NCBI GenBank assembly: GCA_965205865.1
Contig: CBDBHR010000027.1
Location: 170,923-234,922 of the forward strand
Length of the DNA: 64,000 nucleotides
Direction: 5' to 3'
Source of the DNA: a bacterium
GTDB taxonomy: Bacteria; SAR324; NAC60-12
Shown piece after piece: positions 39,206 through 61,012 of this stretch. The notes below the pieces were generated by a model that saw nothing but the letters and a program-made list of their open reading frames with translations, was not told where the DNA came from and searched no databases. The position numbers and the translations under genes were made by a program. The first letter of the stretch is position 1. Each line of letters begins with the position of its first letter.

Positions 39206-39253
39206 TGGCCTATGCCGGGAAACATGGCAACGTCAGTCCCCGCAATATGGTAG

Positions 39254-39302
39254 GTAGGGGTTTCGGCCTCTGAAAACAGTAGGTTGGGGTTAAGGCCCCA
39301 AC
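39254..39302. repeat. Two GTAG-type REP-like hairpins
   Basis: GTAGGGGTTTCGGCCTCTGAAAAC and GTAGGTTGGGGTTAAGGCCCCAAC between convergent genes. Confidence 0.4.
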
Positions 39303-39340
39303 TTGGAAGAAACAACAAACCTGTTCATTCGTAATAAGAG

Positions 39341-39715
39341 TTAACCCAGTTTATTGGAAATCTCCTGCAGGAGTTTGCCGATATTGTCGAAGCCTCCCTG
39401 GGTTACTTTCTCCAGGGATTGGATCGCCAGTGTATTGGCGTCCACCTTGCTTTCCAAATCTTCGAACTTGTTTTCCACATTCCCGAGTTTACTTTCAACG
39501 TTCCCGAGTTTACTTTCCAGACCGTCGAATTTACGCTCCAATCTCTGCAAGCCTTCCCGGCTCTCTCTGCGGAAATGAGAGATTTCCTCAAACATTCCAA
39601 CATCTCTCACCGTTTCCCGTTCTTCGATTTCATTGAATTTGTCAATCAGAAGATTGATCTGAGTTTTGGTGTCTTCAAGCGAGTCGAGCGACTCCACTTT
39701 CTGCAATACGATCAT
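39341..39715 (-). CDS. Small heptad-repeat coiled-coil protein
   Basis: KFDGLES-KLGNVES-KLGNVEN-KFEDLES repeats (21-bp DNA tandem near 39480-39520); GGGGAG RBS. Confidence 0.65.
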   Translation of the reverse strand: MIVLQKVESLDSLEDTKTQINLLIDKFNEIEERETVRDVGMFEEISHFRRESREGLQRLERKFDGLESKLGNVESKLGNVENKFEDLESKVDANTLAIQSLEKVTQGGFDNIGKLLQEISNKLG

Positions 39716-39854
39716 GGTCTCCCCTTTTTGATTTTCGTCGGATTTTGTAGTATCGTATGATTTCCTGAATTATCCTTTATACCTCAGCAGAGAAGGGAAA
39801 TCAATGCTTTCCCGGAACCGACCGTGTGCACCATGCGCCAAGCGTTTCGCATAA

Positions 39855-40853
39855 ATGGAGGAGCAAAAGATCGCTATGAAGTACGCCAAATTCGAGATCC
39901 GAAACCGGTTTCACCAGGACACCACTCTACCTCGCTTCAAGGGTTCCATGCTCCGTGGCGCTATGGGTCATGCCCTCAAGGCCACTATCTGCGCGGTACG
40001 GGTGAAAGTGTGCGAACCCTGCATCCTGCGCCCGACCTGCCTCTATGCCCGGATCTTCGAGGTGAAGCCGGATTACCAAAAACAAACCAAACAGGTCAAC
40101 TTTCCACATCCTTACGTCCTGGAATGTTTGGAGGAGCAAACCTTTTTTCAAAAAGACGAGCCCTTTGATTTTTCCCTGATTCTCTTTGGCGACATGACGC
40201 AGTATCTGCCTTATTTCGTATATGCCTTCGAGCAGATGGGCGAAGGAGGAATCGGCAAAAAGGTCAATGGTCAACGTGTCACTTTTTCCGTGATCGACGT
40301 GTCCTGTAATGGAGAAAGGATCTACGAGGAAAACCGGCGCACTCTGCCCGAGGTCATTCCTTTTGTACAACTCGCGCTTCCTGAGTCTCCGGAACAGGAA
40401 ATCACCGGAATGCGGGTACATTTTGAAACCCCGCTGAGGGTCAAGAACAGGGGACAGTATGCCAGAACCCTGGATTTCGTGACCCTGCTGCGCACCCTGC
40501 TGCGCCGTGTCCAACATCTATGGCAGGAATTTGACGGTATGCCCCTCGATCTCAACGAAAAAGCCCTGCTGCAAATTGCGGAAACCGTGAAAACTCAAAA
40601 TCAACATCTTCACTGGGAAGAACAAACCCGTTTTTCCAACAGACAGCAAAACCGGCAAAACCTGGGTGGACTGAAAGGCAATATTGAATTCAAGGGGAAC
40701 CTGACCCCTTTCATACCCCTGCTCGACCTGGCCCGCCTGCTCCATATCGGCAAAGCCACCAGCTTCGGCCTGGGAAAACTGGACTATGACATCATCGCAA
40801 AAACGAACGGTTCGCTGGAGATTCCCGTGAAACAGGTCACGGCGTTCTACTAG
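39855..40853 (+). CDS. cas6: CRISPR pre-crRNA processing endoribonuclease Cas6
   Basis: FKGSMLRGAMG, Cys cluster CAVRVKVCEPCILRPTC, PHPYV, C-terminal G-loop HIGKATSFGLG. Confidence 0.92.
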   Translation: MEEQKIAMKYAKFEIRNRFHQDTTLPRFKGSMLRGAMGHALKATICAVRVKVCEPCILRPTCLYARIFEVKPDYQKQTKQVNFPHPYVLECLEEQTFFQKDEPFDFSLILFGDMTQYLPYFVYAFEQMGEGGIGKKVNGQRVTFSVIDVSCNGERIYEENRRTLPEVIPFVQLALPESPEQEITGMRVHFETPLRVKNRGQYARTLDFVTLLRTLLRRVQHLWQEFDGMPLDLNEKALLQIAETVKTQNQHLHWEEQTRFSNRQQNRQNLGGLKGNIEFKGNLTPFIPLLDLARLLHIGKATSFGLGKLDYDIIAKTNGSLEIPVKQVTAFY

Positions 40854-40895
40854 AATTTATAATTTGTGGCAATATGATATGAGAAAAAGGTAACC

Positions 40896-41954
40896 ATGAC
40901 AGTCTCTGTAGCACGATATTATCAGCGGGAGAAAATCTCTCTCGATTGCACTATTTTAACTCCTATGTTCTTGGGAAATGCCGACCAACATGCTGCGCTT
41001 TCTGCTGCCCCTATCAAAGCGGCTTTGCGCTACTGGTGGCGCGTCAGCGGGGTGCATAATGCAAAAAATTCGGAGGAATTGTTTAAAAAGGAAAGTTGTC
41101 TTTTTGGCAGTGCCGATGAAAAATTTGGCAGAAGTAAAATCTCGGTTTCAGTGGAAGGCATAGTTCAGGCGAGTGATAATCAATTCCGCTCACCTCACAA
41201 AATACAACATCCCGAAGTTCAACTAGGAAAAATCAGTTCATTACTATATCTGGCAAACATGGGAATATTGCATCCATACCTCAAACCAAAATTCAATTAT
41301 TTTCCAACCCTGCAAACATTCAAAATCCACTTATCGTTTCCTGAAAATCTGAACGACCAGTTTCTTCCAACTTTATTTTTATTCCAACATCTGGGAAGTC
41401 TCGGAGCACGGTCGAGAAATGCTTGGGGAAGTGTCGGTATTTCTTCTGGATACACCTCTAAAGAAATTCCAGACAATATTCCCATACAACCTTGGGAAGT
41501 CCTTTTTGAACAGGATTATCCTCATGGAATAGGCAAAGACGAGAAAGGGGTTTTGTTGTGGGAATCGAAAAACACATTCTCAAAGTGGGAAGAAGCTATG
41601 CATATCTTGGCAGAATCTTATGTAGAACTGAGAACCAATGATCCTTTCAAATTCCCTCAAGCATCACTTCCACACAAAGATCCACAACCTCGGCACTTGC
41701 TCGGATACCCTGTTGGAAAAACTCATCGAGTAAAAGATTGGCCAAATTCCGCGCGAAGCGCATCAGAACTGCGCTTTTCACTCAAACCAAGAGAGAATCG
41801 GTTAAAAATAGTTATTTTTCATGTCCCCCATTTGTTTGACAGATCTATGATTAAAACACGACCTCTCAGCCTAAAAGAAGAACAAATTAAAATCTGGAAA
41901 CAAGTTCACAACTATTTTGACCAATCTGACCAATTCCAACGAGCGACTCTTTAA
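40896..41954 (+). CDS. cmr1: Type III-B RAMP Cmr1
   Basis: LTPMFLG, IKAALRYWWR, LFGS, GSLGARSRNAWG. Confidence 0.9.
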   Translation: MTVSVARYYQREKISLDCTILTPMFLGNADQHAALSAAPIKAALRYWWRVSGVHNAKNSEELFKKESCLFGSADEKFGRSKISVSVEGIVQASDNQFRSPHKIQHPEVQLGKISSLLYLANMGILHPYLKPKFNYFPTLQTFKIHLSFPENLNDQFLPTLFLFQHLGSLGARSRNAWGSVGISSGYTSKEIPDNIPIQPWEVLFEQDYPHGIGKDEKGVLLWESKNTFSKWEEAMHILAESYVELRTNDPFKFPQASLPHKDPQPRHLLGYPVGKTHRVKDWPNSARSASELRFSLKPRENRLKIVIFHVPHLFDRSMIKTRPLSLKEEQIKIWKQVHNYFDQSDQFQRATL

Positions 41955-41963
41955 AGGAAAATT

Positions 41964-44885
41964 ATGCCATTAACCAAACCAACTGCGGCCTATTGGGACG
42001 AAAAGCTTTCGGTGTATCTTCATGATCCTTTTACCAAGTCTTTCCGCATTCAAGGGCATGAACAGGTAGCTAACGAAATTTTGAATGTCATGGGGCTTTC
42101 TCTTCCTGACAAAGATGTCTACAAGGCGGCAGATCAAATTGCATCAGGGATGGATCGCGCCCAAGTTCCAGGATTTGACCGTGATCCTCAGAAAAATGGA
42201 GCAATCGATTTTACCACGACTGCTCGTCTTACACATCCGACTGGAAAAAATGGTAGTCTTCCCGTCCGACTTCCGGAAAAATTACAAAACGTGACACCGG
42301 CCGCTGTGGCACAACTCAACCAGGAAGTGATGCATTTTCTCAATTCGGCCAACTCTATTGGAAGTCAAGCCGATCAAGGAAGTCTTTCTGATCAGTTCAA
42401 GGAAGACCCTGAAAAATTCGCGTATGTACGTTTTACGTATGTACATCTGTTGCTGCGACATGAATTGACGAGACACAACATCAGTCAGATTGGACCACTA
42501 TGGGCGCGCCTTCCCGCCGATACCCGCATTCCGGATCATAGCATCTGGCAGCACAATGGTCTGGTTTCCGCTCTCCATTCCAGCATGCGGGAAAGCCGGG
42601 ATCACAAAGCAGCATTGATGGTGTATTCTCTGACACCAGTGCAGGGGTTTATTGCCAGGGCCCGAAAACTACGGGATTACTGGACGGGATCTGTTATCTT
42701 ATCCTGGCTGGCATTTTGCGGGATTCGCGCGGTGATGGAATACTTGGGAGCCGATCATATCCTCTATCCTTCCCTCATTGATCAGCCCCTGGTGGAAAAT
42801 TATTGCGACCATCAATTTGATCAATGGGAAAAATTGGAACACAACAAACATGCCAATAAATCCATCGCATCCTTTCCCAACAAATTTGTCTGTCTGGTCC
42901 CCAAAGGCAAAGAACAGGATTGCGCAGAAACAATCCGCGAATCTATAAATGGCGCATGGCGGGGTCTCACTGAAGAAACACTGAAATTTCTCAAGCAAGT
43001 TACCCAACAGGATCATTGTAATCTTCAGAAATTGTTCGACAGACAAAGCAAATCATTTTGGGAACATCAATGGGCGTCAACTCCTCTGCTGAGCAAAAAG
43101 GAAGCAGATTTGTGCGAGGAGTTGTTGGGAAAAGAAAGAACTCAAAAGGATCTGGAATTCATGAAGAAAAATGTGCAATTTTCAAAAGATCGTTATGGAT
43201 CATACGATGAGGGTTTTTCTGCACTTTACGGGTTGTCACACAAACTGGCCCAATCCGGCTTGGCATCCATCAAGAGTTGCAAATTCGATGAAAGAACCTG
43301 TGAGCCCGGCATCAAGTGCCAACAATGTGGAGAATTTGAAATTGTAACGGTGCAACCGGGTGAAAACCCATCTTCGAAAGAAACGGTGCAACCGGATGAA
43401 AATCCATCTTTGAAAAAAGATATATTTTGGTGTCAATTACGAAAAAACTGGCAAAAACGGTACAACGCTACCGATTTCAAGGTTACTGAACGATTGTGTT
43501 CGATTTGCTTGACCAAACGTATTGCCTACCAGGTTTGTGAAGAAAACCAACCCAACTCCTTATCTTCTCTGATGCAGCTGAAATATATTTTAACGAGAGA
43601 AAAATCCTTCGCCTCTTCAACGGACGTCGCGCTGTCTGATATGTTTGATTTTGCTGAAACGCAAAATATCATAGACAAAGAACAGCGCAAAAAACTGGCT
43701 CAATATATCCATCAACGTGAAGGGGGAACTCAGGAGGAAAAAGTTAATGAAGAGAGACTGCTCGAAAAAGAACGGTATAAATTATTTGCCGATTTGAAAG
43801 AGAAAAATAGACCGTATACGGAGGCTGACAACTACTACGCTATTCTCTTGATGGATGGAGATCACATGGGCAAACTGGTCAATGGCGAAACCGTTGCTTC
43901 CACATGGATGAGCGTTTTGCATCCTGATTTAGCGAAGCGGCTTGATTCTCCGGAATTCGATACGGATTTCAAAGAATATTGGGAAAGCCAGAAATTGCTT
44001 TCGCAAAGACGGTTGGCTCCTGCCCTTCACGCCTCCATTTCGGAATCCTTGGGTGATTTCTCGATTTATGGAGTCCCAGCGATCATCAAACGCCACCGAG
44101 GGCACTTGATCTACGCCGGTGGTGATGACGTTTGCGCAGTGATGCCGGTTTCCTCCGTCCTGGCAGCGGCTGAAGAAATTGCGAAATTATACTGCGCAGG
44201 ATTCGTAGGTTACAAAAACGCATCTCGGGAGCAAACAGGAAATCATGAAATTTTTAATGGCAGCATTCCATTGAATGTTCAAAATTCCGAATTCCAGAAA
44301 CTATCAGTCCATTTGGGTAAAGGATTTAGCATCTCAGCGGGCATACATATCTGTCATCATAAAAAACCTCTGACCACTGCCTTGCAGCGAGCGCATCAAC
44401 TCTTGGATGATGAAGCGAAAAGGAAGACGGAACGAAACGCAGTCGCAATTGAATTGGACAAGCGCAGCGGAGGAAGTCGGGTGTATTCCAGCAAGTGGGA
44501 AGGATCCGATTCAACCCTGGAAGATTTCAAGTCCATCGGGAAAGCACTTGGGAAAGATTCGCGGGATCTGAGTTCTTCCCTGGCATACCGTCTGGAAACT
44601 TTCAAAGAGGGTTTGATCAGCATTTCCGAAAGTGAGAATTCCTCGAAACGGATGGCCAATTTTATTGCTGCCCAAATGGACCGGTCCGAGGTGACTTTTG
44701 AAGCCGAACCCACTCTCTCTAAAATGGAAAAAGAATCAGAAAAAAGAAAAGAACAGCATAAGCTGGCTCAGAGCATTGTCCGTGTGATTCGGAAATCCAA
44801 GGACGCCCTGGCGCTTGAATCTCTGATTGTCGCCAAATTCCTTGGAGAACGGGTATGGAGAAAAGAACAAGATGATAAAAAATAG
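41964..44885 (+). CDS. cas10: Cas10/Cmr2 cyclic-oligonucleotide synthase
   Basis: N-terminal LHDP...ADQIAS HD-like region, PADTRIPDHSIWQH, Zn finger CQQC/CSIC, MDGDHMG, intact YAGGDD palm. Confidence 0.96.
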   Translation: MPLTKPTAAYWDEKLSVYLHDPFTKSFRIQGHEQVANEILNVMGLSLPDKDVYKAADQIASGMDRAQVPGFDRDPQKNGAIDFTTTARLTHPTGKNGSLPVRLPEKLQNVTPAAVAQLNQEVMHFLNSANSIGSQADQGSLSDQFKEDPEKFAYVRFTYVHLLLRHELTRHNISQIGPLWARLPADTRIPDHSIWQHNGLVSALHSSMRESRDHKAALMVYSLTPVQGFIARARKLRDYWTGSVILSWLAFCGIRAVMEYLGADHILYPSLIDQPLVENYCDHQFDQWEKLEHNKHANKSIASFPNKFVCLVPKGKEQDCAETIRESINGAWRGLTEETLKFLKQVTQQDHCNLQKLFDRQSKSFWEHQWASTPLLSKKEADLCEELLGKERTQKDLEFMKKNVQFSKDRYGSYDEGFSALYGLSHKLAQSGLASIKSCKFDERTCEPGIKCQQCGEFEIVTVQPGENPSSKETVQPDENPSLKKDIFWCQLRKNWQKRYNATDFKVTERLCSICLTKRIAYQVCEENQPNSLSSLMQLKYILTREKSFASSTDVALSDMFDFAETQNIIDKEQRKKLAQYIHQREGGTQEEKVNEERLLEKERYKLFADLKEKNRPYTEADNYYAILLMDGDHMGKLVNGETVASTWMSVLHPDLAKRLDSPEFDTDFKEYWESQKLLSQRRLAPALHASISESLGDFSIYGVPAIIKRHRGHLIYAGGDDVCAVMPVSSVLAAAEEIAKLYCAGFVGYKNASREQTGNHEIFNGSIPLNVQNSEFQKLSVHLGKGFSISAGIHICHHKKPLTTALQRAHQLLDDEAKRKTERNAVAIELDKRSGGSRVYSSKWEGSDSTLEDFKSIGKALGKDSRDLSSSLAYRLETFKEGLISISESENSSKRMANFIAAQMDRSEVTFEAEPTLSKMEKESEKRKEQHKLAQSIVRVIRKSKDALALESLIVAKFLGERVWRKEQDDKK
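43346..43417 (+). repeat. In-frame 36-bp tandem duplication inside cas10
   Basis: TVQPGENPSSKE / TVQPDENPSLKK. Confidence 0.85.
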
Positions 44886-44904
44886 CACGATATAAAGGAG
44901 AACG

Positions 44905-46008
44905 ATGAGCATACAGTCTATTGACCTGACGCCGGTGGATACCCTTTTCTTCCGGGGTGCGGAGCCGATGGTGACAGGAGAGAATCATCATGTCACCATT
45001 TTGTTTCCGCCTATGCCTTCCACCATCCTGGGAGCCTTGCGCACAGGGATGCTGGTTCAAATTCAAAATCCAAAGATCTCTTTTCAAGACTTTACAACAG
45101 GGAAGACAATTGACGGGATCGTGGGAGAGCTTTTGGGATCACCGGATCAACCAGGATTTTCCCTGACAGGTCTCCTGTTTTCCGTCCGGCAACATGGCAA
45201 CGAGTTACTCTTTTTTCCGGCTCCTGCTCATTGGTTCGTGTGCAAACAGGAGTTGGACCGGATAAAGGAAAGAACCACAGCACCCGTTCAAATCCAAATC
45301 ATTCCAAGCCGACCTTTGCCTGCGAGGGCAAAAGAGTTCGGGCTTTGTTCGTCCTTAACGAAGGAATGGCATTGGGCTACAGCCAGGGATGGTCAGGAAC
45401 TGGTTTCTTTAGAGGGGTATTGGGTCTCTGAAACTCTGTTGAAATCGCCAGACACCGGGAAAGCACTTTCTAAATTGGACCAATTGAAAGATCTAACTTC
45501 TACGGAAAAGATAATTCTTCCGTCACAGGCATTCTATGTTTCCGAAACGAGAACCGGCATTGCGCGTAAAAGGGATAAAACGGTAAAGGATGGACATTTA
45601 TATTCAACCACCCACATCCGTTTGTATCCGGAAGTGAGTTTGAAAGTATTTGTCGACAAATCTCTGGAGAAGGCTTTGTCTCCTTCAGGAATCCTGCAAC
45701 TTGGAGGAGAACAGCGAGTGGTTCATTACCACCTGGAGCATTCCCCCCAATTGCTGAACGAATCAACCATGGGAAAAACCTGGCTGGCCTTATCTCCTGT
45801 CACATCCAAAACAGTGGCACGGCTGAATCCTGATGGGATCGCTTCCGGCAAACTGCAACGCATTGGAGGCTGGGAGATGAAAAAGGGAAACGATACAGAT
45901 AAGACACGAGGATTTCACCGTCCTATGGAAGGCTGGTATCCCGCGGGAACAGTCCTGTTTTTTAAAGAACCTCAAAAAGTCGCTGACAGTTTTTTTGTCA
46001 TCGATTGA
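44905..46008 (+). CDS. cmr3: Type III-B Cmr3 (Cas5 group)
   Basis: PVDTLFFRG, FPPMPSTILGALRT, RTGIA, LGGEQR, PAGTV. Confidence 0.93.
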   Translation: MSIQSIDLTPVDTLFFRGAEPMVTGENHHVTILFPPMPSTILGALRTGMLVQIQNPKISFQDFTTGKTIDGIVGELLGSPDQPGFSLTGLLFSVRQHGNELLFFPAPAHWFVCKQELDRIKERTTAPVQIQIIPSRPLPARAKEFGLCSSLTKEWHWATARDGQELVSLEGYWVSETLLKSPDTGKALSKLDQLKDLTSTEKIILPSQAFYVSETRTGIARKRDKTVKDGHLYSTTHIRLYPEVSLKVFVDKSLEKALSPSGILQLGGEQRVVHYHLEHSPQLLNESTMGKTWLALSPVTSKTVARLNPDGIASGKLQRIGGWEMKKGNDTDKTRGFHRPMEGWYPAGTVLFFKEPQKVADSFFVID

Positions 46009-46046
46009 TAGCACCGAATCTATTTTGTTTAAAAGGAGAACAAACT

Positions 46047-47018
46047 ATGTTTTTAGCTGATCATTCTGCAATTCTGACATTTTACACAATCACACCCATG
46101 CATGCCGGCTCCGGTAGTGCAACCGGCGCGGTTGACCTGCCCATCCAAAGAGAACGGCATACCGGAAGACCCATTGTACAGTCCTCCGGAGTCAAGGGAG
46201 CTTTGCGCGACGCAGTTGAACAAAAGATTTGTTATGACTGGAAACAGGCGAACCATAAAACCAAGCAGGATTGCATCAACAAAACCAAAGAAATCTGTGC
46301 GATTTTTGGTGCTGAGAACGAATCAAATGAAAATGGGGATCGAATTGACCAAGCTGGAGCTTTGTCTGTTTCAGATGCGAAAATCCTCCTGTTCCCAGTA
46401 CGTTCTTCCCATGCTCCATTTTTGTATGTGACGTGCCCTTCTATTCTCAGACAGTTGAATAGTGACCTGAAAATCGTTGGTATGCACACACTGAGTGAGC
46501 TTGTAACAAATGATCAAAAGCAGGGTTTCGGACTGGGAAAAAACTTGGTCAACAGAGCTTGCGATACAGGGGGAATGATCCTGGAAGATATGAGGGTTGG
46601 AGTCGAGGAGCACCCTAAAGCTGAAAAGCTCAAAGAGGGCTTATGTCGCTTTGCAGTTCCTTATGGTGAAGATGTTCTGGAAAAGACAGTGCTGCTTCGC
46701 GACGAAGATTTCAATTACATTATTGAGAGCACCTGTCCCGTACAAACCCGCATCAAACTAGGTCCAGGTGGCACGACTTCAGAATCAGGAGGAAATCTCT
46801 GGTACCAGGAATTGTTGCCCAACGACACGCTTATGTATGCGGTCGTTTTTCTTTCAGCAGAAAAGACACTTCAGGAAAATGCTAGAACTGCAGATCATTT
46901 ATATGATTGGCTGACAAAGAAGGGAAATTTACCGGAACATATTCAAATGGGTGGAGACGCCTCTCTAGGTAGAGGTTTTTGTGAATTGAAATGGATTGAA
47001 AAGGAGAACAGATTATGA
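46047..47018 (+). CDS. cmr4: Type III-B Cmr4 (Cas7 backbone RNase)
   Basis: HAGSG..VDLPIQRERHTG (catalytic Asp present), SGVKGALR, QMGGDASLGRG; AAGGAG RBS before ATG 46047. Confidence 0.95.
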   Translation: MFLADHSAILTFYTITPMHAGSGSATGAVDLPIQRERHTGRPIVQSSGVKGALRDAVEQKICYDWKQANHKTKQDCINKTKEICAIFGAENESNENGDRIDQAGALSVSDAKILLFPVRSSHAPFLYVTCPSILRQLNSDLKIVGMHTLSELVTNDQKQGFGLGKNLVNRACDTGGMILEDMRVGVEEHPKAEKLKEGLCRFAVPYGEDVLEKTVLLRDEDFNYIIESTCPVQTRIKLGPGGTTSESGGNLWYQELLPNDTLMYAVVFLSAEKTLQENARTADHLYDWLTKKGNLPEHIQMGGDASLGRGFCELKWIEKENRL

Positions 47019-47389
47019 ACTTGTCACAAAAACGTTCCAAATTTGCTTTAGACAAGTTGGATAAGTTAAGCGCGCATGGATCATTAAAAGAAGCAGGATT
47101 TGATAGTTACACTGCTGGTCTACCTTCAATGGTATTGAGCAATGGGTTAGCTCAAACCTTTGCATTTATCCTGAGCAAGGTGTCAGAAAAGCCAAAAGGA
47201 AAGGAGGTGCTTAATTGGACAAAGGAATGGCTGGAGGAACAAGGGAAAATTAAAGAAACAGCAGATCACAAAGATTTCATGAAGGAAATTTCCTCAATGC
47301 CTCAAAGCCAGTATCTTGCCAGCCAAAAGGAATGTTTATTACTTTGGGAATGGATCAAACGATATTCAAATTCAAACCTTTTTAATTAA
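47015..47389 (+). CDS. cmr5: Type III-B small subunit Cmr5 (Cas11)
   Basis: LPSMVLSNGLAQTFAF, WIKRY; located between cmr4 and cmr6. Confidence 0.92.
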   Translation: MNLSQKRSKFALDKLDKLSAHGSLKEAGFDSYTAGLPSMVLSNGLAQTFAFILSKVSEKPKGKEVLNWTKEWLEEQGKIKETADHKDFMKEISSMPQSQYLASQKECLLLWEWIKRYSNSNLFN

Positions 47390-47397
47390 GGGGTTGT

Positions 47398-48813
47398 ATG
47401 ACAGAAGTTACCGGAAAAACGCTTCAAGAGAATCCTTATCTTTGGCGAGCTGTTTCTAAAGAAGTTAATGAAGTTTTACATAAGGTATTAAATGGTTCAG
47501 AGCCTGCTTTCAATTTAGGACTTTATGCCAGAAAATGGTCTGTTTTTGCTTTTAATGTGTTGAAAGATAAAGATCGTTGGCGTTGCCCTTCCAACAGCGA
47601 AAATATTTGGTGGGAAAAAAAATACAGAAATGAGCAAAAACCTCAAGAAATCAAGCAGGCAGAGGAGAGAGGAAATAACTTAAATTCCATACAGAAATGC
47701 TTTAATAAACAACAATACCCTGATGCAATTCAATCTGCCGAGAAAGCCTTAATTCAAATTCATATACGATTTTCAGGTATCATTCAAACATATAAACAAC
47801 AAGGATACAAAACCTATCTTCTCTCACTTTCAATGCGGTCCCCTTTGGTGCATGGTTTGGGAGAAACCCACCCGATGGAAAAATTTCTTACCTTTGACCG
47901 GAATACAGGCATTCCTAATATTCCTTCCACTTCAGTAAAGGGAGTCTTGAAAACCCGTTTAATGATTCAGGAATTGAATAACTGGAGCTTGAAGACAACT
48001 GATGAATGCTTGGCGGCCAAGAAAGAAGGATTCTTAATAAAAAACAAAGAACACGAATATCTGGTCAATGAAAATTACCCACTTTTCAAAGAACTCTTTG
48101 GTGGTGCAGAAGAGCAAGGGAAAGCAGAGAGCCAGGCACAACGGGGAAAAATTATTTTTTTAGACGCATTTCCTGCCACCTTTCCCCGCTTGAAAAAGGA
48201 GATCATGACACCACACTATGGTAATTATTATTCTGGAAAAGGAAAAATCGGCCCCACTGAATCCCAGCAACCGGTTCCTAATGCTTATCTCAGCGTTGAT
48301 CCGCAGCATGGTCAGCAAAAATGGAACTTTGTGTTCTTGATCCATCCCGATCTATCTCAAAAACATCCGGAATATATCGAAAAATTCATGCGGGTTTTTG
48401 AAAACAAAGATGTGTCGGATATTGGCTTTGGTTCCAAAACGGCTATTGGATTCGGACAATTTGCTCCCATTTCTCTGCAAAAATGGAAAGAAGAAGAGGA
48501 AAAACAGAAGGAAAAAGAACAGATGGAAGCAAAACGAAAAAAAGAGGAAGCCCGGTTGGCAGCAGAGGCAAAGGCTCAAGAAGAAAAACGGGCACTAATG
48601 TCCCCTGTGGAAAAATTGATTGAAGCATTGAAAACCATCCCCCAATATAAAGACCGTTTCCATGAATTGGAAAAATTTGAAGGAGGTGACAAAATCAAAC
48701 TGGCTCGATTCTTCAAAGAAAAATTCATGGAAAACCAGGAATGGGACGTCAAACCTAGAAGGGAAAAGCAGTTTGACAAAGTACAGAAAATTCGAGGGAT
48801 TTTAGGGGAATAG
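47398..48813 (+). CDS. cmr6: Type III-B Cmr6 with charged C-terminal helical extension
   Basis: HGLG, GIPNIPSTSVKG, GKIIFLDAFP, IMTPHY, GFGSKTAIGFG. Confidence 0.92.
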   Translation: MTEVTGKTLQENPYLWRAVSKEVNEVLHKVLNGSEPAFNLGLYARKWSVFAFNVLKDKDRWRCPSNSENIWWEKKYRNEQKPQEIKQAEERGNNLNSIQKCFNKQQYPDAIQSAEKALIQIHIRFSGIIQTYKQQGYKTYLLSLSMRSPLVHGLGETHPMEKFLTFDRNTGIPNIPSTSVKGVLKTRLMIQELNNWSLKTTDECLAAKKEGFLIKNKEHEYLVNENYPLFKELFGGAEEQGKAESQAQRGKIIFLDAFPATFPRLKKEIMTPHYGNYYSGKGKIGPTESQQPVPNAYLSVDPQHGQQKWNFVFLIHPDLSQKHPEYIEKFMRVFENKDVSDIGFGSKTAIGFGQFAPISLQKWKEEEEKQKEKEQMEAKRKKEEARLAAEAKAQEEKRALMSPVEKLIEALKTIPQYKDRFHELEKFEGGDKIKLARFFKEKFMENQEWDVKPRREKQFDKVQKIRGILGE

Positions 48814-50976
48814 ATGAACCTCCTCCTCACCACCTTGGGCATGTCTTGGGCGATAGTGCCGGAACTGCTGGGTTTCAGCAATCCGCAACAGCTTGATTTG
48901 TATGCGCATCACCCGGAAGCTGAAAAGATTGTTACCGACCGGGAAAATTATGACATCCAGTCGGTGGATGAGATTTGGATTGTGACGACCGGAGGATCAC
49001 AGGCGGCTCAAAGCATAGCGACGCTGCAATCCTGGCATCAGGCACTGGGCTTGATGCCTCCTCTCCGTATCTTCCAGGCAGAAAGCACGGATCATCTGAG
49101 CAGCCCGCAGGAATGCCGGTGGATGAAGGAGTTGATTCTGCGTGTGGTGCTACAGGCTCAAGCGCGGGTTGGTGAGGGGCAGGTCCTGCTTTCCCTGACA
49201 GGAGGTCGTAAGACTATGAGTGCCGACATGCAGCAAGCGGCCTTGTTTTTTGGATGCCATGCTCTACTGCACGTCATTGACCAGGAAACCATCCCGCAAG
49301 CCCTGCGCAGGCCGGAACCGTCATATTTTCTAACGCCTTTCCCGGAACAATGGGCCTCGATTTTTATGCCGGTCGTGGTAGGTGGTCAATATCCGAAAAG
49401 CATCGTCCTTAGTTACCAGTATCCTGTTGCAGGGATCCATGAGCGATTTCCGCTGCCGGAATGTCCTGAAAACGGCCTTGTCTCGGTCCCGCCTCAAACC
49501 GAATTGGGGGAACACGTCAATCAAATGCAGAAAGAATCGCAATATGTCTTTGTCAACCATTCCCGCCAGCTTCGACAGGAATCCCCGGCATCCAACTTCC
49601 TGGCCTTATATCATCTTCCCCCGCAGCAGATTCAAGCCCTGAAAGAACAAAAATTTGGAGTGTCCCCGGAGAAAAAACGGGATGAACGGGAGTGGCTTCA
49701 TCAGCTTCCCAAAGCGGAGTTGCACTGTCACTTCGGAGGTGCTGCCAGTGCTGAAGACATGATCGCGATTGCTCGCGCCCATGAGATGCATTTAACGAAG
49801 TATCACAAGGCTTTGCAAGCCTGGCGTCAGGAATGGGAGCCTTTGGTGCGGCAAGGTAATGCCGGTGGAATTCGGGATCGCCTGGAAAAACAAATGAGGG
49901 TGAAAGAATCCAGCGTTCTCAAAGTAATCAGACAGTCAGTGAAAGGTGTGCCCGGATATGTTTGCGTCTCGGCGTTTATCCTGCTTTTCTCGGAGTCCCC
50001 GGAGTTGTTGGATGCCGTGATCTTTGGCCCTTTTCAGGAGGAAAAGAATTTTTTCAATATTGGCATTGATCGCTATGAAGCATTGGGAGATTTGCAAGGT
50101 TCGGCCCTCTTGCAAACCAGAGTAGCCATTCAAATGGCCTGTCGGCTCCTGCTGGAAAAAGCCTGTCAACATCGAGTACGCTATTTGGAAATTCGTTGCT
50201 CGCCTGTGAATTATACGCATGGTGGGTTGGAAGCAATCGAAGTGGTTGGGGCCATTCAGGAAGTTTGCCAGCAATATAAGGACAGATTGACAACCAGATT
50301 GTTGTTCATGGCCAGCCGCCATGGAAAGATGAGTACAGTCTACCAGCATATCGAACTGGCAGAGGAGATCTGGAAGCAGGAAAGCCACTCCTCGGATGAG
50401 TCTTTTTTAATTGGCTTTGATCTGGCGGGAAATGAGGAATTCCGCAAGGCTGCAGAAATGAGGAGCGCCTTCATGCCTTTGCTGCAACGCTGCGCAAGAT
50501 TGACCATTCATGCTGGTGAGACCGACGATGCCACCAGCGTTTGGGAAGCGGTGTATCTTCTAGGTGCGGACCGCATTGGACATGGACTCACTCTAAAAAA
50601 TAAGCCGGAGTTGCTTCAACGTTTCATAGACCGGAGGATTACCCTGGAGATGTGCCCTTCCAGTAATTTTCAGATTGTCGGATTCCGGGACAACTATGTG
50701 CCAGAATCCATCAGTACGGCAAAATATCCTTTGAAAGAATATCTGGAGAAAGGCTTGAAAGTCACCGTCAATACGGACAATCCTGGCATTTCTCGCACTG
50801 ATTTCACTAACGAACTTCACCGGGCGGCCCGGCTCACACCCGGAGGCTTGAGCGCCTGGGAAATTCTCCAATTGGTCCGCAATAGTTTCCGCGCGGCATT
50901 TGTTTCACATAGCATCTCCAAAAAACTCATTCTCAAAGCCGAAGAAGAGATTCTGGAAATTTTCAATAAAACCTGA
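48814..50976 (+). CDS. cad1: CARF-adenosine deaminase fusion effector (Cad1/CAAD-like)
   Basis: CARF: TLGMSWAIVPE, SLTGGRKTMS; ADA: LHCHFGG, GFDLAGNE, HAGE, RIGHG, EMCPSSN, NTDNP; directly after cmr6. Confidence 0.9.
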   Translation: MNLLLTTLGMSWAIVPELLGFSNPQQLDLYAHHPEAEKIVTDRENYDIQSVDEIWIVTTGGSQAAQSIATLQSWHQALGLMPPLRIFQAESTDHLSSPQECRWMKELILRVVLQAQARVGEGQVLLSLTGGRKTMSADMQQAALFFGCHALLHVIDQETIPQALRRPEPSYFLTPFPEQWASIFMPVVVGGQYPKSIVLSYQYPVAGIHERFPLPECPENGLVSVPPQTELGEHVNQMQKESQYVFVNHSRQLRQESPASNFLALYHLPPQQIQALKEQKFGVSPEKKRDEREWLHQLPKAELHCHFGGAASAEDMIAIARAHEMHLTKYHKALQAWRQEWEPLVRQGNAGGIRDRLEKQMRVKESSVLKVIRQSVKGVPGYVCVSAFILLFSESPELLDAVIFGPFQEEKNFFNIGIDRYEALGDLQGSALLQTRVAIQMACRLLLEKACQHRVRYLEIRCSPVNYTHGGLEAIEVVGAIQEVCQQYKDRLTTRLLFMASRHGKMSTVYQHIELAEEIWKQESHSSDESFLIGFDLAGNEEFRKAAEMRSAFMPLLQRCARLTIHAGETDDATSVWEAVYLLGADRIGHGLTLKNKPELLQRFIDRRITLEMCPSSNFQIVGFRDNYVPESISTAKYPLKEYLEKGLKVTVNTDNPGISRTDFTNELHRAARLTPGGLSAWEILQLVRNSFRAAFVSHSISKKLILKAEEEILEIFNKT

Positions 50977-50995
50977 TGATCTCCACTGGAGTCAA

Positions 50996-52315
50996 ATGAT
51001 GCAAAAAATCCTTTTTGTCAGCGTGGGAGGTTCATACCAACCTATCGTCAAAGCCATTGAGTCCCTTAAGCCAGAGCGAACTGTTTTTTTCTGTTCCACC
51101 GGAAGCCATTCCCAGGTTATCGGGAAAGGTAAACCTTGTGAGCAACGGAAAGGTTCCGAGATAGTAAAAAAGCTTCCCAATATCCCGACACAACTGCAAA
51201 TGGGAGAGCAATTCAATCCGGACCAGGATGTTCTGGAGGTCCGGAACCCCGACGATTTCCAAGAGTGCTACGAGGCGCTTAATGAAAAGATTCACCAATT
51301 GCGGCGGATGCCTGGCGACTACCAATTCATGGCTGATTACACAGGGGGCACCAAAACCATGTCGATGGCACTGGCGATGCTTAGCATGGATCAAGGCATT
51401 CCACTCTACATCACCACCCGTTCTACCCGAGATAACATAATAAAAGTTGAACATGGTGAATTTACTGAAAGAGTGCCTGTTTCTGCAATCATCGCCCAGC
51501 GAAAATGCGAGCAAACACTTCCTTTATTATTGGAAAACTACAATTACGCTGCTGCTGTAAACGAGCTGCAAGGTCTGCTGCGAGGAATGGAACTAATTCC
51601 GGAACTCAAACAGAAATTGCATAAACGCAGGGATTGCTTTGCGGCATTTGAATGCTGGGACCGTTTCCAACACATTGAGGCCCTGCACCTGTTAGAACCT
51701 TATATGCGCTCTTCAGAGATCCAATCTTATGGAATATTCCTCAGGCAGGTCATCCACAGCCGCAGGCAAATCGACATGCCCTTTGAAGCAAAAGGAGGAA
51801 CCAAAGGACATGGGTATGAGTTGATCCTCGATTTGCTGCTCAACGAGGAACGCTGCAAAGCACAGAAACGTTTCGACGATGGAATTGCCCGGATTTACCG
51901 GGCCGTGGAATTGCTGGCGCAGATGAGATTGGCATATAAATATGGAGTCAAAACCGGGGAGGTGGATCTGCAATGCATTCCGGACAAGTTGCATGAAAAA
52001 TACAACCAATATCGTTCTCCCACAACCGATAAGATCGAACTGGGTTTGGACAAAAGCTATAAATTGCTGGAAGATTTACAAGACCCTTTAGGGCAGCACT
52101 ACCAGAAAAATCTTCAAAAGGTTCGTAACGCATTGACCGGTAGAAATCATTCCTTTCTCGCCCACGGCTTCACCCCGATTTCCGGAGAGGACTACGAAGC
52201 TACAAATAAAGTACTGACAGGGTTCATCCGGGAGGCGCTGCGTTTGTTGATTCCATCAAAATACATATTTGAATTTCCTGAACAATTTCCACGAACTCTC
52301 GATTTTCATCCGTAA
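50996..52315 (+). CDS. CARF-HEPN effector (TIGR02710/Csx1-Csm6-like RNase)
   Basis: SVGGS, DYTGGTKTMS CARF motifs; C-terminal RNHSFLAHG (RX4-6H) HEPN motif; GGAG RBS before ATG 50996. Confidence 0.85.
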   Translation: MMQKILFVSVGGSYQPIVKAIESLKPERTVFFCSTGSHSQVIGKGKPCEQRKGSEIVKKLPNIPTQLQMGEQFNPDQDVLEVRNPDDFQECYEALNEKIHQLRRMPGDYQFMADYTGGTKTMSMALAMLSMDQGIPLYITTRSTRDNIIKVEHGEFTERVPVSAIIAQRKCEQTLPLLLENYNYAAAVNELQGLLRGMELIPELKQKLHKRRDCFAAFECWDRFQHIEALHLLEPYMRSSEIQSYGIFLRQVIHSRRQIDMPFEAKGGTKGHGYELILDLLLNEERCKAQKRFDDGIARIYRAVELLAQMRLAYKYGVKTGEVDLQCIPDKLHEKYNQYRSPTTDKIELGLDKSYKLLEDLQDPLGQHYQKNLQKVRNALTGRNHSFLAHGFTPISGEDYEATNKVLTGFIREALRLLIPSKYIFEFPEQFPRTLDFHP

Positions 52316-52333
52316 TTGAGGAGTCTTTGTCTT

Positions 52334-53487
52334 ATGATCGTCTACGTCAAACACCAGGGAGCGATCATTTCCCGCAGGGGCACACCCTGCAGGTCCGCAA
52401 GGACCATGCGCTGTGCCAGACCATTTTTGTCCACCGTCTGCAACAATTGGTGATCCTGGGCAATGCCATGCTGACGCTTTCGGCCATCAATCTGCTCTGT
52501 CGGGAAAAAATCGACACGATCTTCCTCACCCTCAACGGCCGCTACAAGGGGCGTCTGGAAACCGAAGAGAGCAAGAACGTCTTTCTGACCAAGAAGCAGT
52601 TCGATTCCCTGACCGACCCGAGCTTCGGGCTCAAGTTCGCCCGGGCAATCGTGGCAGGCAAGCTCAGCAACATGGCCACTCTCTTAGGGCGCATCAAAAG
52701 ACGCAACAAACACCTGCGTTCCCAGGACTTTGACAAGCAGGTCAACGCCATCCGTCTCCTGCTCCCGAAGGTGGCCTGCGCTGACAGCCTGGAATCCCTG
52801 CGAGGTTTCGAAGGGCATGGCACCGCCACCTTTTACCAGGGCTTTCGCAACGGATTCAAGCAGGACTGGAATTTCCGCAAGCGCATCCGACGTCCGCCCA
52901 CCGATCCAGTCAATTCCATCCTGTCTTTCCTCTACACGCTGCTGTTCAACCGGGTGTATGCAGCAGTGCGGGTAGCAGGTCTCTATCCGGCGGTGGGCTA
53001 CCTGCACTCACTGGATTACGGACGCTATTCTCTGGTATTGGACTTGATGGAGGAATTTCGCTCCATTGTCGTGGAAACTTGCGTGCTGAGTCTCTTCAAT
53101 CTCAACATTTTGAAAAATGACAGCTTCTATTACGAGGAGTTGCCGGAAGCAGAACCGGAAGTGATGACACGCTCCAGGGTAACCAGAGACAGCATCGGCT
53201 ACATTTTCGAGAACACCGATGACGGCTATTTCGATGCCGCGGAGCAAAAGGTGGAGGAAACCATGCCTTTGGATCATGAACCGACCGAAAAGCGCCCCTG
53301 CCGCCTCCGGCCGGATGCCTTGAAAGCGGTTTTGGAATCCTTTGAAGACAAACTGGAAACAGAATTCTTATATGCTCCCACCAATGACAGATTGACCTAC
53401 GCCGAAGTTTTCGTGGCCCAGGCTCAGCAGTTCCGGCATTTCCTGGAAGGTACCCGCTCCACCTACCAACCTCTGCAAATGAAGTAA
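52334..53487 (+). pseudogene. cas1: Cas1 with a frameshift near codon 15-16
   Basis: ATG 52334 reads MIVYVKHQGAIISRRG, a Cas1-like N-terminus, then goes out of frame; the body (LRGFEG, RRPPTDPVNSILSFLY, GYLH, DLMEEFR) is in the -1 frame. Confidence 0.85.
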
Positions 53488-53489
53488 TC

Positions 53490-53774
53490 ATGGAACGCCA
53501 ACTAATCATTACCTATGACGTCAGCAACGACAAATTGAGAACTGGCGTCCACAAATTCTTACGACAATATGGCGTCAACTCGCAAAAATCCGTCTTTGAG
53601 ATGATTGTGGATGACGTGGAATATCGGAAAATCCTTGATTTCCTGGACGGTTGTCTGCCCCAGGATGAAAACGATTCGGCGCGCATCTATCACCTCTGCA
53701 AACCCTGCGCCCGTCATATTTCACGACTAGGCGATGGCCTGGATCTCAATGTGCTGGCTTTTGAAATCATTTGA
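53490..53774 (+). CDS. cas2: Cas2
   Basis: ITYDV, YG..SQKSVFE, DSARIYHLCKPC. Confidence 0.92.
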   Translation: MERQLIITYDVSNDKLRTGVHKFLRQYGVNSQKSVFEMIVDDVEYRKILDFLDGCLPQDENDSARIYHLCKPCARHISRLGDGLDLNVLAFEII

Positions 53775-53783
53775 AAATAGAAA

Positions 53784-54068
53784 ATGGAACACGTTTATTT
53801 GATCGCCTACGACATTGCTGATGATAGAAGATTGCACCGCATCGCCAAACTGATGGAGGGCTATGGCGTTCGGGTCCAGAAATCCATCTTCGAGTCCGCC
53901 CTTTCGGAAACCGAATTGAAAGAACTGAAATGGAGAACCTTGCAGTTGCTTGATCCGGTGGAAGACGGGGTCAAATTTTTCAAGCTCTGTGAACGTTGTC
54001 AACAAAAAACCGGCGTGATCGGCAAAGGTGGGCATACGGATTTGCTCAAACGTCTGCTGATTGTATAA
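53784..54068 (+). CDS. cas2: Cas2 (second, divergent paralog)
   Basis: IAYDIADDRRL, YGVRVQKSIFE, DGVKFFKLCERC. Confidence 0.93.
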   Translation: MEHVYLIAYDIADDRRLHRIAKLMEGYGVRVQKSIFESALSETELKELKWRTLQLLDPVEDGVKFFKLCERCQQKTGVIGKGGHTDLLKRLLIV

Positions 54069-54306
54069 TGCCTCGCGATCTTTTCCGCCAACCTCCGAGG
54101 AATTTTTGTAGGTTTTTCTATCCTATTGAAATGATTGACTGTTCATGATTCTATCTTTCCGAGGTTGGCGGACGTGAAAAAGTCAATGATTTCAATAAAT
54201 TAAAAACAGGAAAGGAGATAACCATGCTCAATCATGAAAAAAACCGGAAAGGTTGGCGTTTTGCCAGATTATTTTCCTTTAATAACAAATGGTTGCAGGG
54301 AGCGGC
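54069..54306 (+). promoter_or_regulatory. CRISPR leader
   Basis: AT-rich non-coding region between cas2 and the first repeat; inverted repeat TCCGCCAACCTC (54084-54095)/GAGGTTGGCGGA (54161-54172). Confidence 0.8.
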
Positions 54307-56915
54307 GAGTGAATTGACCTGATTTGAGAAGGGATTACGACTCGCAGATAAACTGCATGATGTTGCACCATTTCCGGCGCAAGAGTGAATTGACCTGATT
54401 TGAGAAGGGATTACGACATTTCTCAAACACCGCTTGATACCTCTTTTCCTTTTCTGGAGTGAATTGACCTGATTTGAGAAGGGATTACGACTTTTTTTAC
54501 GAAACGATTGTTTGCTTTTCCCTTTGAGTTTGAGTGAATTGACCTGATTTGAGAAGGGATTACGACAAACTCTTTTTGTGACTTATTCATTTTTCTCCTC
54601 TCCCAAGAGTGAATTGACCTGATTTGAGAAGGGATTACGACATAGGAAGATTCCTTGATGGATTCGTATCGGGCTGATGAGTGAATTGACCTGATTTGAG
54701 AAGGGATTACGACTTTTCTCTTTCCATCGTCTTTCTTAACTTTATTTGCGGCTGAGTGAATTGACCTGATTTGAGAAGGGATTACGACACCAATGCCTCG
54801 GAACCGTTTTTCAACCGAAGAGTCATAGAGTGAATTGACCTGATTTGAGAAGGGATTACGACGATAAGGTCAACGCTTTCATCCGTCTGATACTCCCGGA
54901 GTGAATTGACCTGATTTGAGAAGGGATTACGACTTCGGTTGCACATATTTGTCCTTTCTCTCTTTTCATTGAGAGTGAATTGACCTGATTTGAGAAGGGA
55001 TTACGACTTCGTTTAGTTTGCCTTTCCTCATAGATTTCTCTTTTCTGGAGTGAATTGACCTGATTTGAGAAGGGATTACGACATGTATCCTTTATGCCTC
55101 CGTATGAATCGGATGAGTTCCCGGAGTGAATTGACCTGATTTGAGAAGGGATTACGACAAGTTCCTTTCCCATGATGTCTGCAAAACATTTCTCGAGTGA
55201 ATTGACCTGATTTGAGAAGGGATTACGACATTCCTTAGGGACATCGGTATTCTCCAGGGTCGGTCGGGAGTGAATTGACCTGATTTGAGAAGGGATTACG
55301 ACCAGACGAGCGTTAATCTTTCAGTTGTGGAGAAACACAAGAGTGAATTGACCTGATTTGAGAAGGGATTACGACATTATTTCTAATTATTCTTCCCTTC
55401 GATTTGCGCACATGGAGTGAATTGACCTGATTTGAGAAGGGATTACGACTTGTTTATACAGTAGTCTATGAATATTGCGGCGGTTGGCATGAGTGAATTG
55501 ACCTGATTTGAGAAGGGATTACGACTTTAATTGTACCTTTCATCACTGCTCCGGTTAGACGAGTGAATTGACCTGATTTGAGAAGGGATTACGACTTGAA
55601 TTTATCATATTGTGTTTAGTCCAGTAGGTTGCTGTGAGTGAATTGACCTGATTTGAGAAGGGATTACGACCTTATTGCCCCTCGATGCCTCCCTGAATTC
55701 CTTCAAATGAGTGAATTGACCTGATTTGAGAAGGGATTACGACTCCTTCTTGTCCGGGTTGCAACGGCACTTCACCGGAGCCCAGAGTGAATTGACCTGA
55801 TTTGAGAAGGGATTACGACATTTTTCCTTCTCGATTCGGGTTATCTTATTGTTTAAACGAGTGAATTGACCTGATTTGAGAAGGGATTACGACAATGTTT
55901 TTCGGTTGAGTCTTGCTGTCCAGTGCAATTCGAGTGAATTGACCTGATTTGAGAAGGGATTACGACGTTTCGATTAGCTCCTCGATTTCATTAATTTCTA
56001 ATTCGAGTGAATTGACCTGATTTGAGAAGGGATTACGACTTGACCAGCAAGGACGCTATCCTTTACCAGAAATCAGGAGAGTGAATTGACCTGATTTGAG
56101 AAGGGATTACGACTTGAATTTTCATTCTTCCCTTTCTCATCGGGCCCCATTGAGTGAATTGACCTGATTTGAGAAGGGATTACGACTTCACCAAAAGTAA
56201 TTTCCATGTCTCTCTCCTTAATTAAGAGTGAATTGACCTGATTTGAGAAGGGATTACGACTTTACTTTACGCATTTCTGCAAAAGCTTCTCCTGCTTGAG
56301 TGAATTGACCTGATTTGAGAAGGGATTACGACGAGGAGTGAAGTCTTTGATGCTGCACTGATAGATGCGAGTGAATTGACCTGATTTGAGAAGGGATTAC
56401 GACAGGTGTCGAGTTGTGTTGAGTTAAGTTTAGAATGGCTTGAGTGAATTGACCTGATTTGAGAAGGGATTACGACATTGTTCTCCTTGGGTTAATTGTC
56501 TTTAATAACTAAAGAGTGAATTGACCTGATTTGAGAAGGGATTACGACTTCTGTTGGCCATACATGTGATCCGTCTGGCATGTTTCCAGAGTGAATTGAC
56601 CTGATTTGAGAAGGGATTACGACACCATATTTTTCCGTTTTCATCTTCATATGCAGTGCGCGAGTGAATTGACCTGATTTGAGAAGGGATTACGACTTGA
56701 ACTTCTTCAGAGGCTACGAGCTCATTCATCCGAGGAGTGAATTGACCTGATTTGAGAAGGGATTACGACTCATTTCCTCCATACGGGCATTGTAAGGCAC
56801 TTCGGGGAGTGAATTGACCTGATTTGAGAAGGGATTACGACTTGAATTGTTGGTTTGTAGCCAAAGAGAAATTAGCTACTGAGTGAATTGACCTGATTTG
56901 AGAAGGGATTACGAC
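54307..56915 (+). CRISPR. CRISPR array: 36 copies of the 35-bp repeat GAGTGAATTGACCTGATTTGAGAAGGGATTACGAC, 35 spacers of about 35-41 bp
   Basis: Counted by eye; the 3' ATTACGAC 8-nt tag and leader position give + orientation; truncated by the inversion junction. Confidence 0.98.
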
Positions 56916-56919
56916 ATTG

Positions 56920-58204: not shown

Positions 58205-58213
58205 TTTCTATTT

Positions 58214-58498: not shown

Positions 58499-58500
58499 GA

Positions 58501-59654: not shown

Positions 59655-59672
59655 AAGACAAAGACTCCTCAA

Positions 59673-60993: not shown

Positions 60994-61012
60994 TTGACTC
61001 CAGTGGAGATCA

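Follow-up and report, generated by a model that had tools for sequence, protein, structure and literature searches.

A complete type III-B CRISPR-Cas locus encoding a Cad1-family deaminase and a predicted Csm6-type RNase in a SAR324-lineage genome

Cad1 is a deaminase that is activated by cyclic oligoadenylate (cOA) and converts ATP to ITP (PMC11645235), and the described system closest to the one reported here is that of Thermoanaerobaculum aquaticum, a thermophilic acidobacterium whose locus holds adaptation genes, a type III-B complex, Csx1, and Cad1 (PMC12669630). TaqCad1 binds and cleaves cyclic tetra-adenylate (cA4) and converts ATP to ITP; through its action as a ring nuclease it restrains TaqCsx1, an RNase that depends on cA4, and single residues are assigned to cA4 binding and cleavage (K106) and to the active site (N549 and G264) (PMC12669630). 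The Cad1-family deaminase CAAD and Csx1 suppress growth additively; CAAD is activated by cA4 and by cyclic hexa-adenylate (cA6), Csx1 by cA4 only, and both cleave cA4 (PMC12993439). Two further relatives are BbaCad1 from a Bacteroidales bacterium, a hexamer that turns ATP into ITP on cOA binding (PMC11645235), and the CAAD of Limisphaera ngatamarikiensis, which is cited as part of a CAAD-Nudix pair (PMC12993439). We analyzed a 64,000-nt stretch of a SAR324-lineage bacterial assembly (GCA_965205865.1, contig CBDBHR010000027.1, hereafter C27; "the window" means this whole stretch, and positions are those of the window unless a contig is named), in which a type III-B CRISPR-Cas locus encodes a Cad1-family deaminase followed by a CARF-HEPN protein. 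An initial annotation of the window had suggested that this combination of effectors may be undescribed; the T. aquaticum type III-B pair of Cad1 and a CARF-HEPN RNase speaks against this, as does the linkage of 76% of 121 CAAD systems to further CARF effectors, namely Csm6, Card1, and Csx1 (PMC12993439), and the pairing found here is already known and characterized in another bacterium.

The locus comprises 12 plus-strand genes between positions 39855 and 54068, tightly packed with gaps of 0-42 nt or overlaps of 4 nt, whose order by Pfam and NCBIfam matches is cas6, cmr1, cas10/cmr2, cmr3 to cmr6, CARF-adenosine deaminase, CARF-HEPN, cas1, and two copies of cas2. It extends past 54068, where the initial annotation ended, into a leader and a CRISPR array, and all parts of a type III-B (Cmr) CRISPR-Cas locus are present. 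The cas10/cmr2 gene (41964-44885, 973 aa) encodes an HD motif, a Cys-rich finger, and a GGDD palm, and its product matches PF12469 (104.8 bits), PF22335 (103.6 bits), and TIGR02577 (225.5 bits against a cut-off of 79.4), with the Cmr2_N and palm2 domains that mark it as Cmr2-type. Its motifs are read at residues 20-21 (HD), 452 (CQQCG), 512 (CSIC), 631 (DGD), and 719-722 (GGDD), so that the palm is intact, as the initial annotation had it, and the segment YAGGDD (717-722) aligns to the GGDD of 9l7c, an entry deposited as a GGDEF domain-containing protein that is the best PDB sequence match (E 2.5e-53); the Cmr2 chains 4w8y and 3w2v are also among the PDB sequence matches. It is the sole Cas10 found in the assembly, which is 92% complete and in 30 contigs, a limit that all genome-wide negatives given here carry.

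Family matches to Cmr1, Cmr3, Cmr4, Cmr5, and Cmr6 stand beside Cas10, giving the full set of type III-B subunits, and the cas6-cmr1-6 operon is complete as annotated, with every gene where it had been placed. Upstream of Cas10, cas6 (39855-40853, 332 aa) encodes a protein that matches PF10040 over residues 188-308 (65.4 bits) and scores 27.5 bits against TIGR01877, under the curated cut-off; cmr1 (40896-41954, 352 aa) matches TIGR01894 with 33.4 bits against a cut-off of 28.65, together with the RAMPs family PF03787. Downstream, cmr3 (44905-46008, 367 aa) matches PF09700 with 127 bits and passes Pfam's cut-off, its 88 bits against TIGR01888 being below the cut-off of 100.4, and cmr4 (46005-47018, 337 aa from a TTG start) matches TIGR02580 with 196 bits and encodes the backbone and target-RNA-cleaving subunit. 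The Cmr4 sequence GAVDLP starts at residue 41, and its Asp occupies what we take to be the position of the catalytic residue. The last two subunit genes are cmr5 (47015-47389, 124 aa; PF09701, 97 bits, and TIGR01881) and cmr6 (47398-48813, 471 aa), which matches TIGR01898 with 104 bits over residues 143-355. Two N-terminal regions of the core proteins have no assigned family: the first ~180 residues of Cas6 (window 39855-40400) and an extension of ~140 residues in Cmr6 (window 47398-47820). Within 39200-54400, promoter-like sites (19 against 18.2 expected) and terminator-like sites (15 against 18.1 expected) are at chance level. Judged from sequence, the locus is probably functional, and it is chromosomal and most likely present in a single copy.

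The first effector gene, cad1 (48814-50976, plus strand), encodes 720 residues that match PF00962 (165 bits) and PF09623 (25 bits) and combine an N-terminal CARF domain with a C-terminal adenosine deaminase (ADA) barrel in one chain. The CARF motif GGRKT (residues 130-134) and the motifs HCH (304-306), HAGE (566-569), GHG (589-591), and NTDNP (653-657) are invariant in 25 long-form homologues, and together give the Cad1 family signature of HxH, HAGE, GHG, and a TDN that replaces the canonical TDD; the fusion of CARF to a deaminase with these motifs is thus read from the sequence just as first annotated. PDB sequence matches are to TaqCad1 (9ebt and 9ubl, E 5e-60), BbaCad1 (9c67, E 9e-56), and LngCAAD (8z3k and 8z3p, E 7e-52), the CARF domain aligning only to TaqCad1, where 9ebt is matched in two stretches as against one for BbaCad1 and LngCAAD. 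By alignment, the counterparts of TaqCad1 K106 (in GGRKT), G264 (in HCHFGG), and N549 (in NTDN) are conserved. An AlphaFold2 model built on the 25 homologues has a mean predicted local distance difference test (pLDDT) score of 89, and in a Foldseek search the 16 best matches listed (ranks 1-26) are all Cad1/CAAD chains, matched over the full length with E 4e-35 to 8e-29. The sequence and structure searches that had been proposed as a check therefore both place the deaminase with Cad1/CAAD. Its nearest named homologues, at ~50% identity, are from a SAR324 cluster bacterium and Deltaproteobacteria bacterium TL4.

The second effector gene, csm6 (50996-52315, plus strand), encodes 439 residues, and family, motif, and model evidence identify the product as a predicted Csm6-type CARF-HEPN ribonuclease of the TIGR02710 family. 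It covers positions 2-381 of the 384 in TIGR02710 with 185 bits, passing the equivalog cut-off of 83.9, matches PF09670 with 111 bits, and has the architecture of CARF, linker, and HEPN. The start is most likely the ATG at 50996, which is preceded by GGAG at a distance of 6 nt and gives a product in the size range of the homologues (433-445 aa); a TTG at 50900, which would overlap cad1, is an unlikely start. A CARF motif GGTKTM lies at residue 117, and the HEPN motif that had been annotated as R-X4-6-H is found as RNHSFLAH at residues 383-390, an R-X6-H motif whose R383, N384, and H390 do not vary among 20 sequences. A PDB search with the single sequence returned no match at E <= 0.01; a profile of 20 RNase sequences matched Thermus thermophilus Csm6, or TtCsm6 (5fsh, 8jh1, and 8jbb), with E 3e-7 over a span that includes the CARF and HEPN motifs. 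The AlphaFold2 model has a pLDDT of 87, and Foldseek ranks TtCsm6 first, aligned from end to end with a template modeling (TM) score of 0.58-0.65, ahead of EiCsm6 and StCsm6' from Enterococcus and Streptococcus, so that for this protein too profile and fold agree with the original assignment. The nearest homologues of the RNase are 438 aa long and 95% identical over 100% of the query, and its nearest named relatives are cyanobacterial TIGR02710 proteins at ~50% identity.

Set beside the described systems, the locus is most like that of T. aquaticum, with which it shares a cmr operon followed by CARF-ADA and then CARF-HEPN, the presence of adaptation genes, and the lack of a Nudix partner; the papers on T. 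aquaticum describe one cOA signal, two outputs, and self shut-off (PMC12669630, PMC12993439), and TaqCad1 is both the best PDB sequence match of the window Cad1 and the only one in which CARF is aligned. The window Cad1 differs in being 720 rather than 625 aa long, with ~65 extra helical residues and an identity of ~26% in the structural alignment, and its host appears to be a mesophile-like, SAR324-type metagenome-assembled genome (MAG) rather than a thermophilic acidobacterium. BbaCad1 is likewise a CARF-ADA fusion with the same catalytic motifs and a fold match of E 3e-32 (9c67 and 9c77), but it has 600 aa, belongs to a type III-A locus, prefers cA6, and aligns by sequence over the ADA domain only. 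The L. ngatamarikiensis CAAD is a Cad1-family deaminase matched by the window Cad1 at E 7e-52 and has a Nudix partner, whereas none was found for the window Cad1 in the 92%-complete assembly. TtCsm6 (TTHB152) shares with the window RNase the succession of CARF, helical, and HEPN regions and is its best full-length fold match; the CARF motif DxTxGTKxMS and the HEPN motif RNxSxxxHGF align, the latter being RNSALLVHGF in TtCsm6, but identity is 16-17%, and the type III-A/B host of TtCsm6 has no Cad1.

We consider it very probable that this is a type III-B locus in which one Cas10 signal drives two outputs, Cad1 and a Csm6-type RNase. In the mechanism that we propose, Cas6 would cut the array transcript into CRISPR RNAs (crRNAs), on which Cmr1, Cas10, and Cmr3-6 would assemble to bind complementary phage RNA; Cmr4 would cleave the target RNA, and the HD domain of Cas10 could attack DNA. 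The GGDD palm of Cas10 would convert ATP into cOA, most probably cA4, which would bind the CARF domains of both effectors encoded right after cmr6; Cad1 would then deaminate ATP to ITP and the TtCsm6-like HEPN RNase would degrade RNA, the two jointly arresting the infected cell. Shut-off would fall to ring-nuclease activity of the effectors' own CARF (possibly HEPN) domains, ITP would be cleared only by an unlinked housekeeping Ham1/RdgB ITPase, and Cas1 with the two Cas2 proteins would acquire spacers. The enzymatic steps, the identity of the cOA, and any ring-nuclease activity are carried over from homologues. The proposal of the initial annotation that one Cas10 signal has two outputs has thus gained family, profile, and fold matches and a parallel in T. 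aquaticum biochemistry.

Several points weigh against this scheme. Identity to solved proteins is low, at 23-27% to Cad1/CAAD structures and 16-17% to Csm6 structures, and both activities are assigned by homology; the window RNase is TIGR02710/TtCsm6-like and may differ in family from TaqCsx1. Position 11 of CARF motif I, a Ser in the window Cad1, varies across the clade in the 25 homologues, which makes ring-nuclease activity of Cad1 uncertain, and the insert that sets its long form apart means that its regulation or assembly may differ. In an inverted second copy of part of the locus, discussed below, csm6 is frameshifted, and the RNase would be broken if that sequence were the true one. Lastly, BbaCad1 is described as preferring cA6 (PMC12669630), and the two effectors may not share one ligand.

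This last point leads to a layered form of signaling in which Cad1 is tuned to cA6 and the RNase to cA4, a reading that we regard as tentative and somewhat unlikely. The preference of BbaCad1 fits it, as does the report that TaqCad1 and LngCAAD, although preferring cA4, respond to cA6 too (PMC12669630) and that TaqCsx1 responds to cA4 only (PMC12993439); the window RNase, for its part, is closest in fold to the cA4-activated TtCsm6. On the other hand, the CARF domain of the window Cad1 aligns by sequence only to TaqCad1, which prefers cA4, and ligand preference is not readable from sequence by the means used here. Were the signals layered in this way, a viral cA4 ring nuclease would silence the RNase alone. 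The reading that we prefer remains that of one signal, most probably cA4, acting on both effectors.

The length of the window Cad1 is shared with a large clade: a search at E <= 1e-10 gives 562 matches, and the best 120 of the 562 are 683-797 aa long. The ~65 extra residues lie between HxH and the rest of the ADA barrel, in the region of residues ~319-415 (window 49768-50058), where helices are predicted with high confidence, and are absent from the three characterized enzymes (600-635 aa). In the model, the insert appears to sit on the active-site or lid side of the barrel, from where it could alter substrate choice, hexamer assembly, or signaling from CARF to the catalytic site. That the long-form clade is functionally distinct from the three characterized enzymes is nonetheless doubtful in our judgment; if it were so, Cad1 would be both an effector and the sole off-switch for Csm6 in loci without a Nudix partner or ring nuclease.

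The initial annotation had reported neither a Nudix/ITPase partner nor a stand-alone ring nuclease in the locus and had reasoned that shut-off would rely on the CARF domains or on unlinked genes, and searches of the whole assembly agree with this. The nearest match to the Nudix family PF00293 is at C27:138770, ~72 kb upstream of cas6. We built a hidden Markov model (HMM) from six Nudix proteins encoded next to cad1 in related loci; it finds a partner beside cad1 in 19 of 38 related loci, six of which are the seeds and match by construction, leaving 13 more, and finds no such cad1-linked partner in the assembly at E <= 0.01. The housekeeping Ham1/RdgB ITPase is unlinked to the locus, at C28:492703. 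Among stand-alone ring nucleases, none was found in searches for Crn1 and Crn2, with Csx15, Csx16, and Csx20 outside the search: Crn2/DUF1874 (PF08960) has no match in the assembly, with a control that did match, and Crn1 (NF040581) has only sub-threshold matches, to the CARF domain of csm6 itself. Csx3 (PF09620) also has no match, in a search whose control too matched nowhere.

The survey of how often such effectors co-occur, likewise suggested at the outset, was run on 80 related loci from GTDB species genomes, of which we kept the 38 whose match begins at or before query position 5 and ends at or after position 690 and dropped 42 as partial or ADA-only. We scanned 160 open reading frames (ORFs) within 2.6 kb of cad1 against Pfam and rescanned 16 at a looser threshold; because many loci are cut by contig ends, the resulting counts are lower bounds. 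Pfam recognizes a second CARF effector near cad1 in 17 of the 38 loci, with Card1-type proteins in 11, Cas_APE2256 in four (one of which also has Card1), and Cas_NE0113, Csx1_CARF, and the Csm6-HEPN family PF09670 in one each (the last in locus L023). The profile of the window RNase finds TIGR02710-type proteins within 10 kb of cad1 in 4/38 loci (L023, L021, L034, and L009), L023 having itself contributed to the profile. With these added, no fewer than 19 of the 38 loci have another CARF effector close to cad1. Five loci (L005, L018, L006, L020, and L045) have ORFs of 408-445 aa beside cad1 that lack a Pfam match and may be unrecognized CARF effectors, a further reason to take the counts as lower bounds. 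Two of these ORFs, in L005 and L018, were tried as relatives of the RNase and dropped from the profile at 14-15% identity. The exact pairing of Cad1 with a TIGR02710 protein is a minority form of a common theme, and recurs in MAGs of Methylococcaceae, Thermodesulfobacteriota, Planctomycetota, and Sumerlaeota. Each of the two proteins also has close homologues (Cad1 80-90% and RNase 75-95% identical) that appear to share one contig in four further assemblies, as judged from matching contig sizes of 489513, 39311, 15842, and 9914 nt.

Behind the effector genes lie the adaptation genes cas1 (52327-53487, 386 aa; PF01867, 260 bits, and TIGR00287, 233 bits), which is the sole Cas1 locus found in the assembly, and two cas2 paralogues of 94 aa each, at 53490-53774 (PF09827, 54 bits) and 53784-54068 (PF09827, 76 bits), all on the plus strand. 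The products of the tandem cas2 pair, equal in size, are 29% identical, which marks them as diverged paralogues rather than a recent duplicate. An AT-rich stretch of 238 nt from cas2 to the first repeat (54069-54306, plus strand) is the leader, its role being assigned by position only, and is followed by the CRISPR array (54307-56915, plus strand), in which 35 spacers (35-41 nt) alternate with 36 identical repeats of 35 nt. The 3' end of the repeat, ATTACGAC, would yield an 8-nt crRNA tag on the plus strand, and presumably resembles known type III tags. On the crRNA strand, the spacers (54342-56880) have more T than A in 31 of 35 cases and a mean purine fraction of 0.39; such T-richness is what crRNAs antisense to purine-rich mRNAs would show, and the strand bias suggests that the array has been under functional selection. 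A test of open frames does not discriminate between the spacer strands, with 60 open frames on each, and comparison of the spacers with the host genome gave a single 18-nt chance match, so that no self-targeting spacer was found. Elsewhere in the assembly, an orphan mini-array at C26:235726-235833 consists of two reverse-oriented copies of the same 35-nt repeat around one spacer.

Beyond the array, the window ends in an inverted, minus-strand copy (56917-64000) of positions 47989-55071, which runs to the end of contig C27 at 64000 and holds part of cmr6, cad1, a frameshifted csm6, cas1, both cas2 genes, the leader, and the 11 leader-proximal spacers. At the junction (56916/56917), 4 nt past the 36th repeat, the sequence passes into base 21 of a reverse-oriented repeat. 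Aligned over 7081 columns, the copies differ at only two, one a substitution at 49164 that leaves the Cad1 protein unchanged and the other a single-base indel at 51202, in a G-run that reads GGG (51200-51202) in the first copy; the change in the size of this run causes the csm6 frameshift in the second copy. A self-comparison of the 30 contigs returned only one other inverted repeat longer than 3 kb, C29:1-10046 against C29:33186-43235, again at a contig tip, with 99.87% identity over 10,051 columns, seven substitutions, and six single-base indels. All six indels fall within the first 1390 nt, and each is in a stretch where one base is repeated two to four times. Terminal fold-backs with differences of this homopolymer type suggest that chimeric long reads have lengthened the contig ends, and the inverted copy is probably an artefact of assembly.

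A real and recent fold-back duplication, which would give convergent arrays with their 11 newest spacers in common, duplicate the cad1-cas1-cas2 module, and leave one csm6 to decay, seems unlikely to us. It could account for the arms being parted by 1845 nt of unique array rather than abutting as they would in a simple template-complement chimeric read, and for the presence of a substitution besides the indel, but the copy ends exactly at the contig end, differs at only two columns of which one is the size of a G-run, and has as its sole counterpart above 3 kb an inverted repeat that also touches a contig tip and carries six homopolymer-type indels. The sequence of the second copy bears in turn on whether one effector is a non-functional remnant that leaves the locus with a single output, as its csm6 is split into ORFs of 338 and 127 aa. 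We regard this as highly improbable: the ORFs of the first copy are full length with every catalytic and ligand-binding motif, both proteins match their family profiles end to end (the RNase over 2-381 of the 384 positions of TIGR02710), and the closest RNase homologues, at 438 aa, align over the whole query. Whether or not the duplication is real, csm6 of the first copy is the one to be trusted, because it matches homologues from end to end. Surveys should leave the terminal inverted copies of this assembly out of their counts of gene duplications and pseudogenes.

The locus looks mosaic, since the RNase has its nearest named relatives among cyanobacteria and Cad1 has them in SAR324 and Deltaproteobacteria. 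Cas1, like the RNase, looks cyanobacterial, but a cyanobacterial host was rejected because a search of the assembly for a photosystem reaction-centre gene (Photo_RC) found none, with a control that matched. Cad1 is absent from the complete same-genus genome G001; in a genome of the same family (G008), a Cad1 at 50% identity is accompanied by Card1 and a type III-A system. Directly before the locus, at 37808-39205, lies a gene for a helicase of the XPB/Ssl2 type that includes a damage-recognition domain (PF18458, PF04851, and PF16203); synteny with G001 stops at its stop codon (39205) and resumes inside contig C28 rather than at a contig end, and the G001 site past the helicase holds unrelated genes, among them AbiV-like and Swt1-like HEPN proteins. 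In the corresponding G001 segment (C1:3574500-3594499), the AbiV-like HEPN gene occupies segment positions 7775-9067 and a Swt1-HEPN/DUF499 gene 12347-15718. The absence of Cad1 from G001, the unrelated genes at the site, and the type III-A system of G008 point to an accessory island in a variable region, and the site after the helicase may be a defence-island hot spot. Farther upstream in the window, a 150-aa ORF at 27601-28053 aligns with the PhoX alkaline phosphatase profile over no more than positions 113-205 of 515 and may be a gene fragment.

The mechanism, structures, and co-occurrence statistics of systems of this kind are already in print, and the locus opens no new question about them. 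The long-form Cad1 clade, abundant and with no characterized member, is a reasonable target for biochemistry. With this locus, the hosts of the Cad1 and CARF-HEPN pair come to include a SAR324-type marine or sponge-associated lineage, and the pair is placed in a setting where neither of its known helpers, a Nudix partner or a stand-alone ring nuclease, was found, which fits the published view that the signal is brought to an end by the CARF domains of the effectors themselves.

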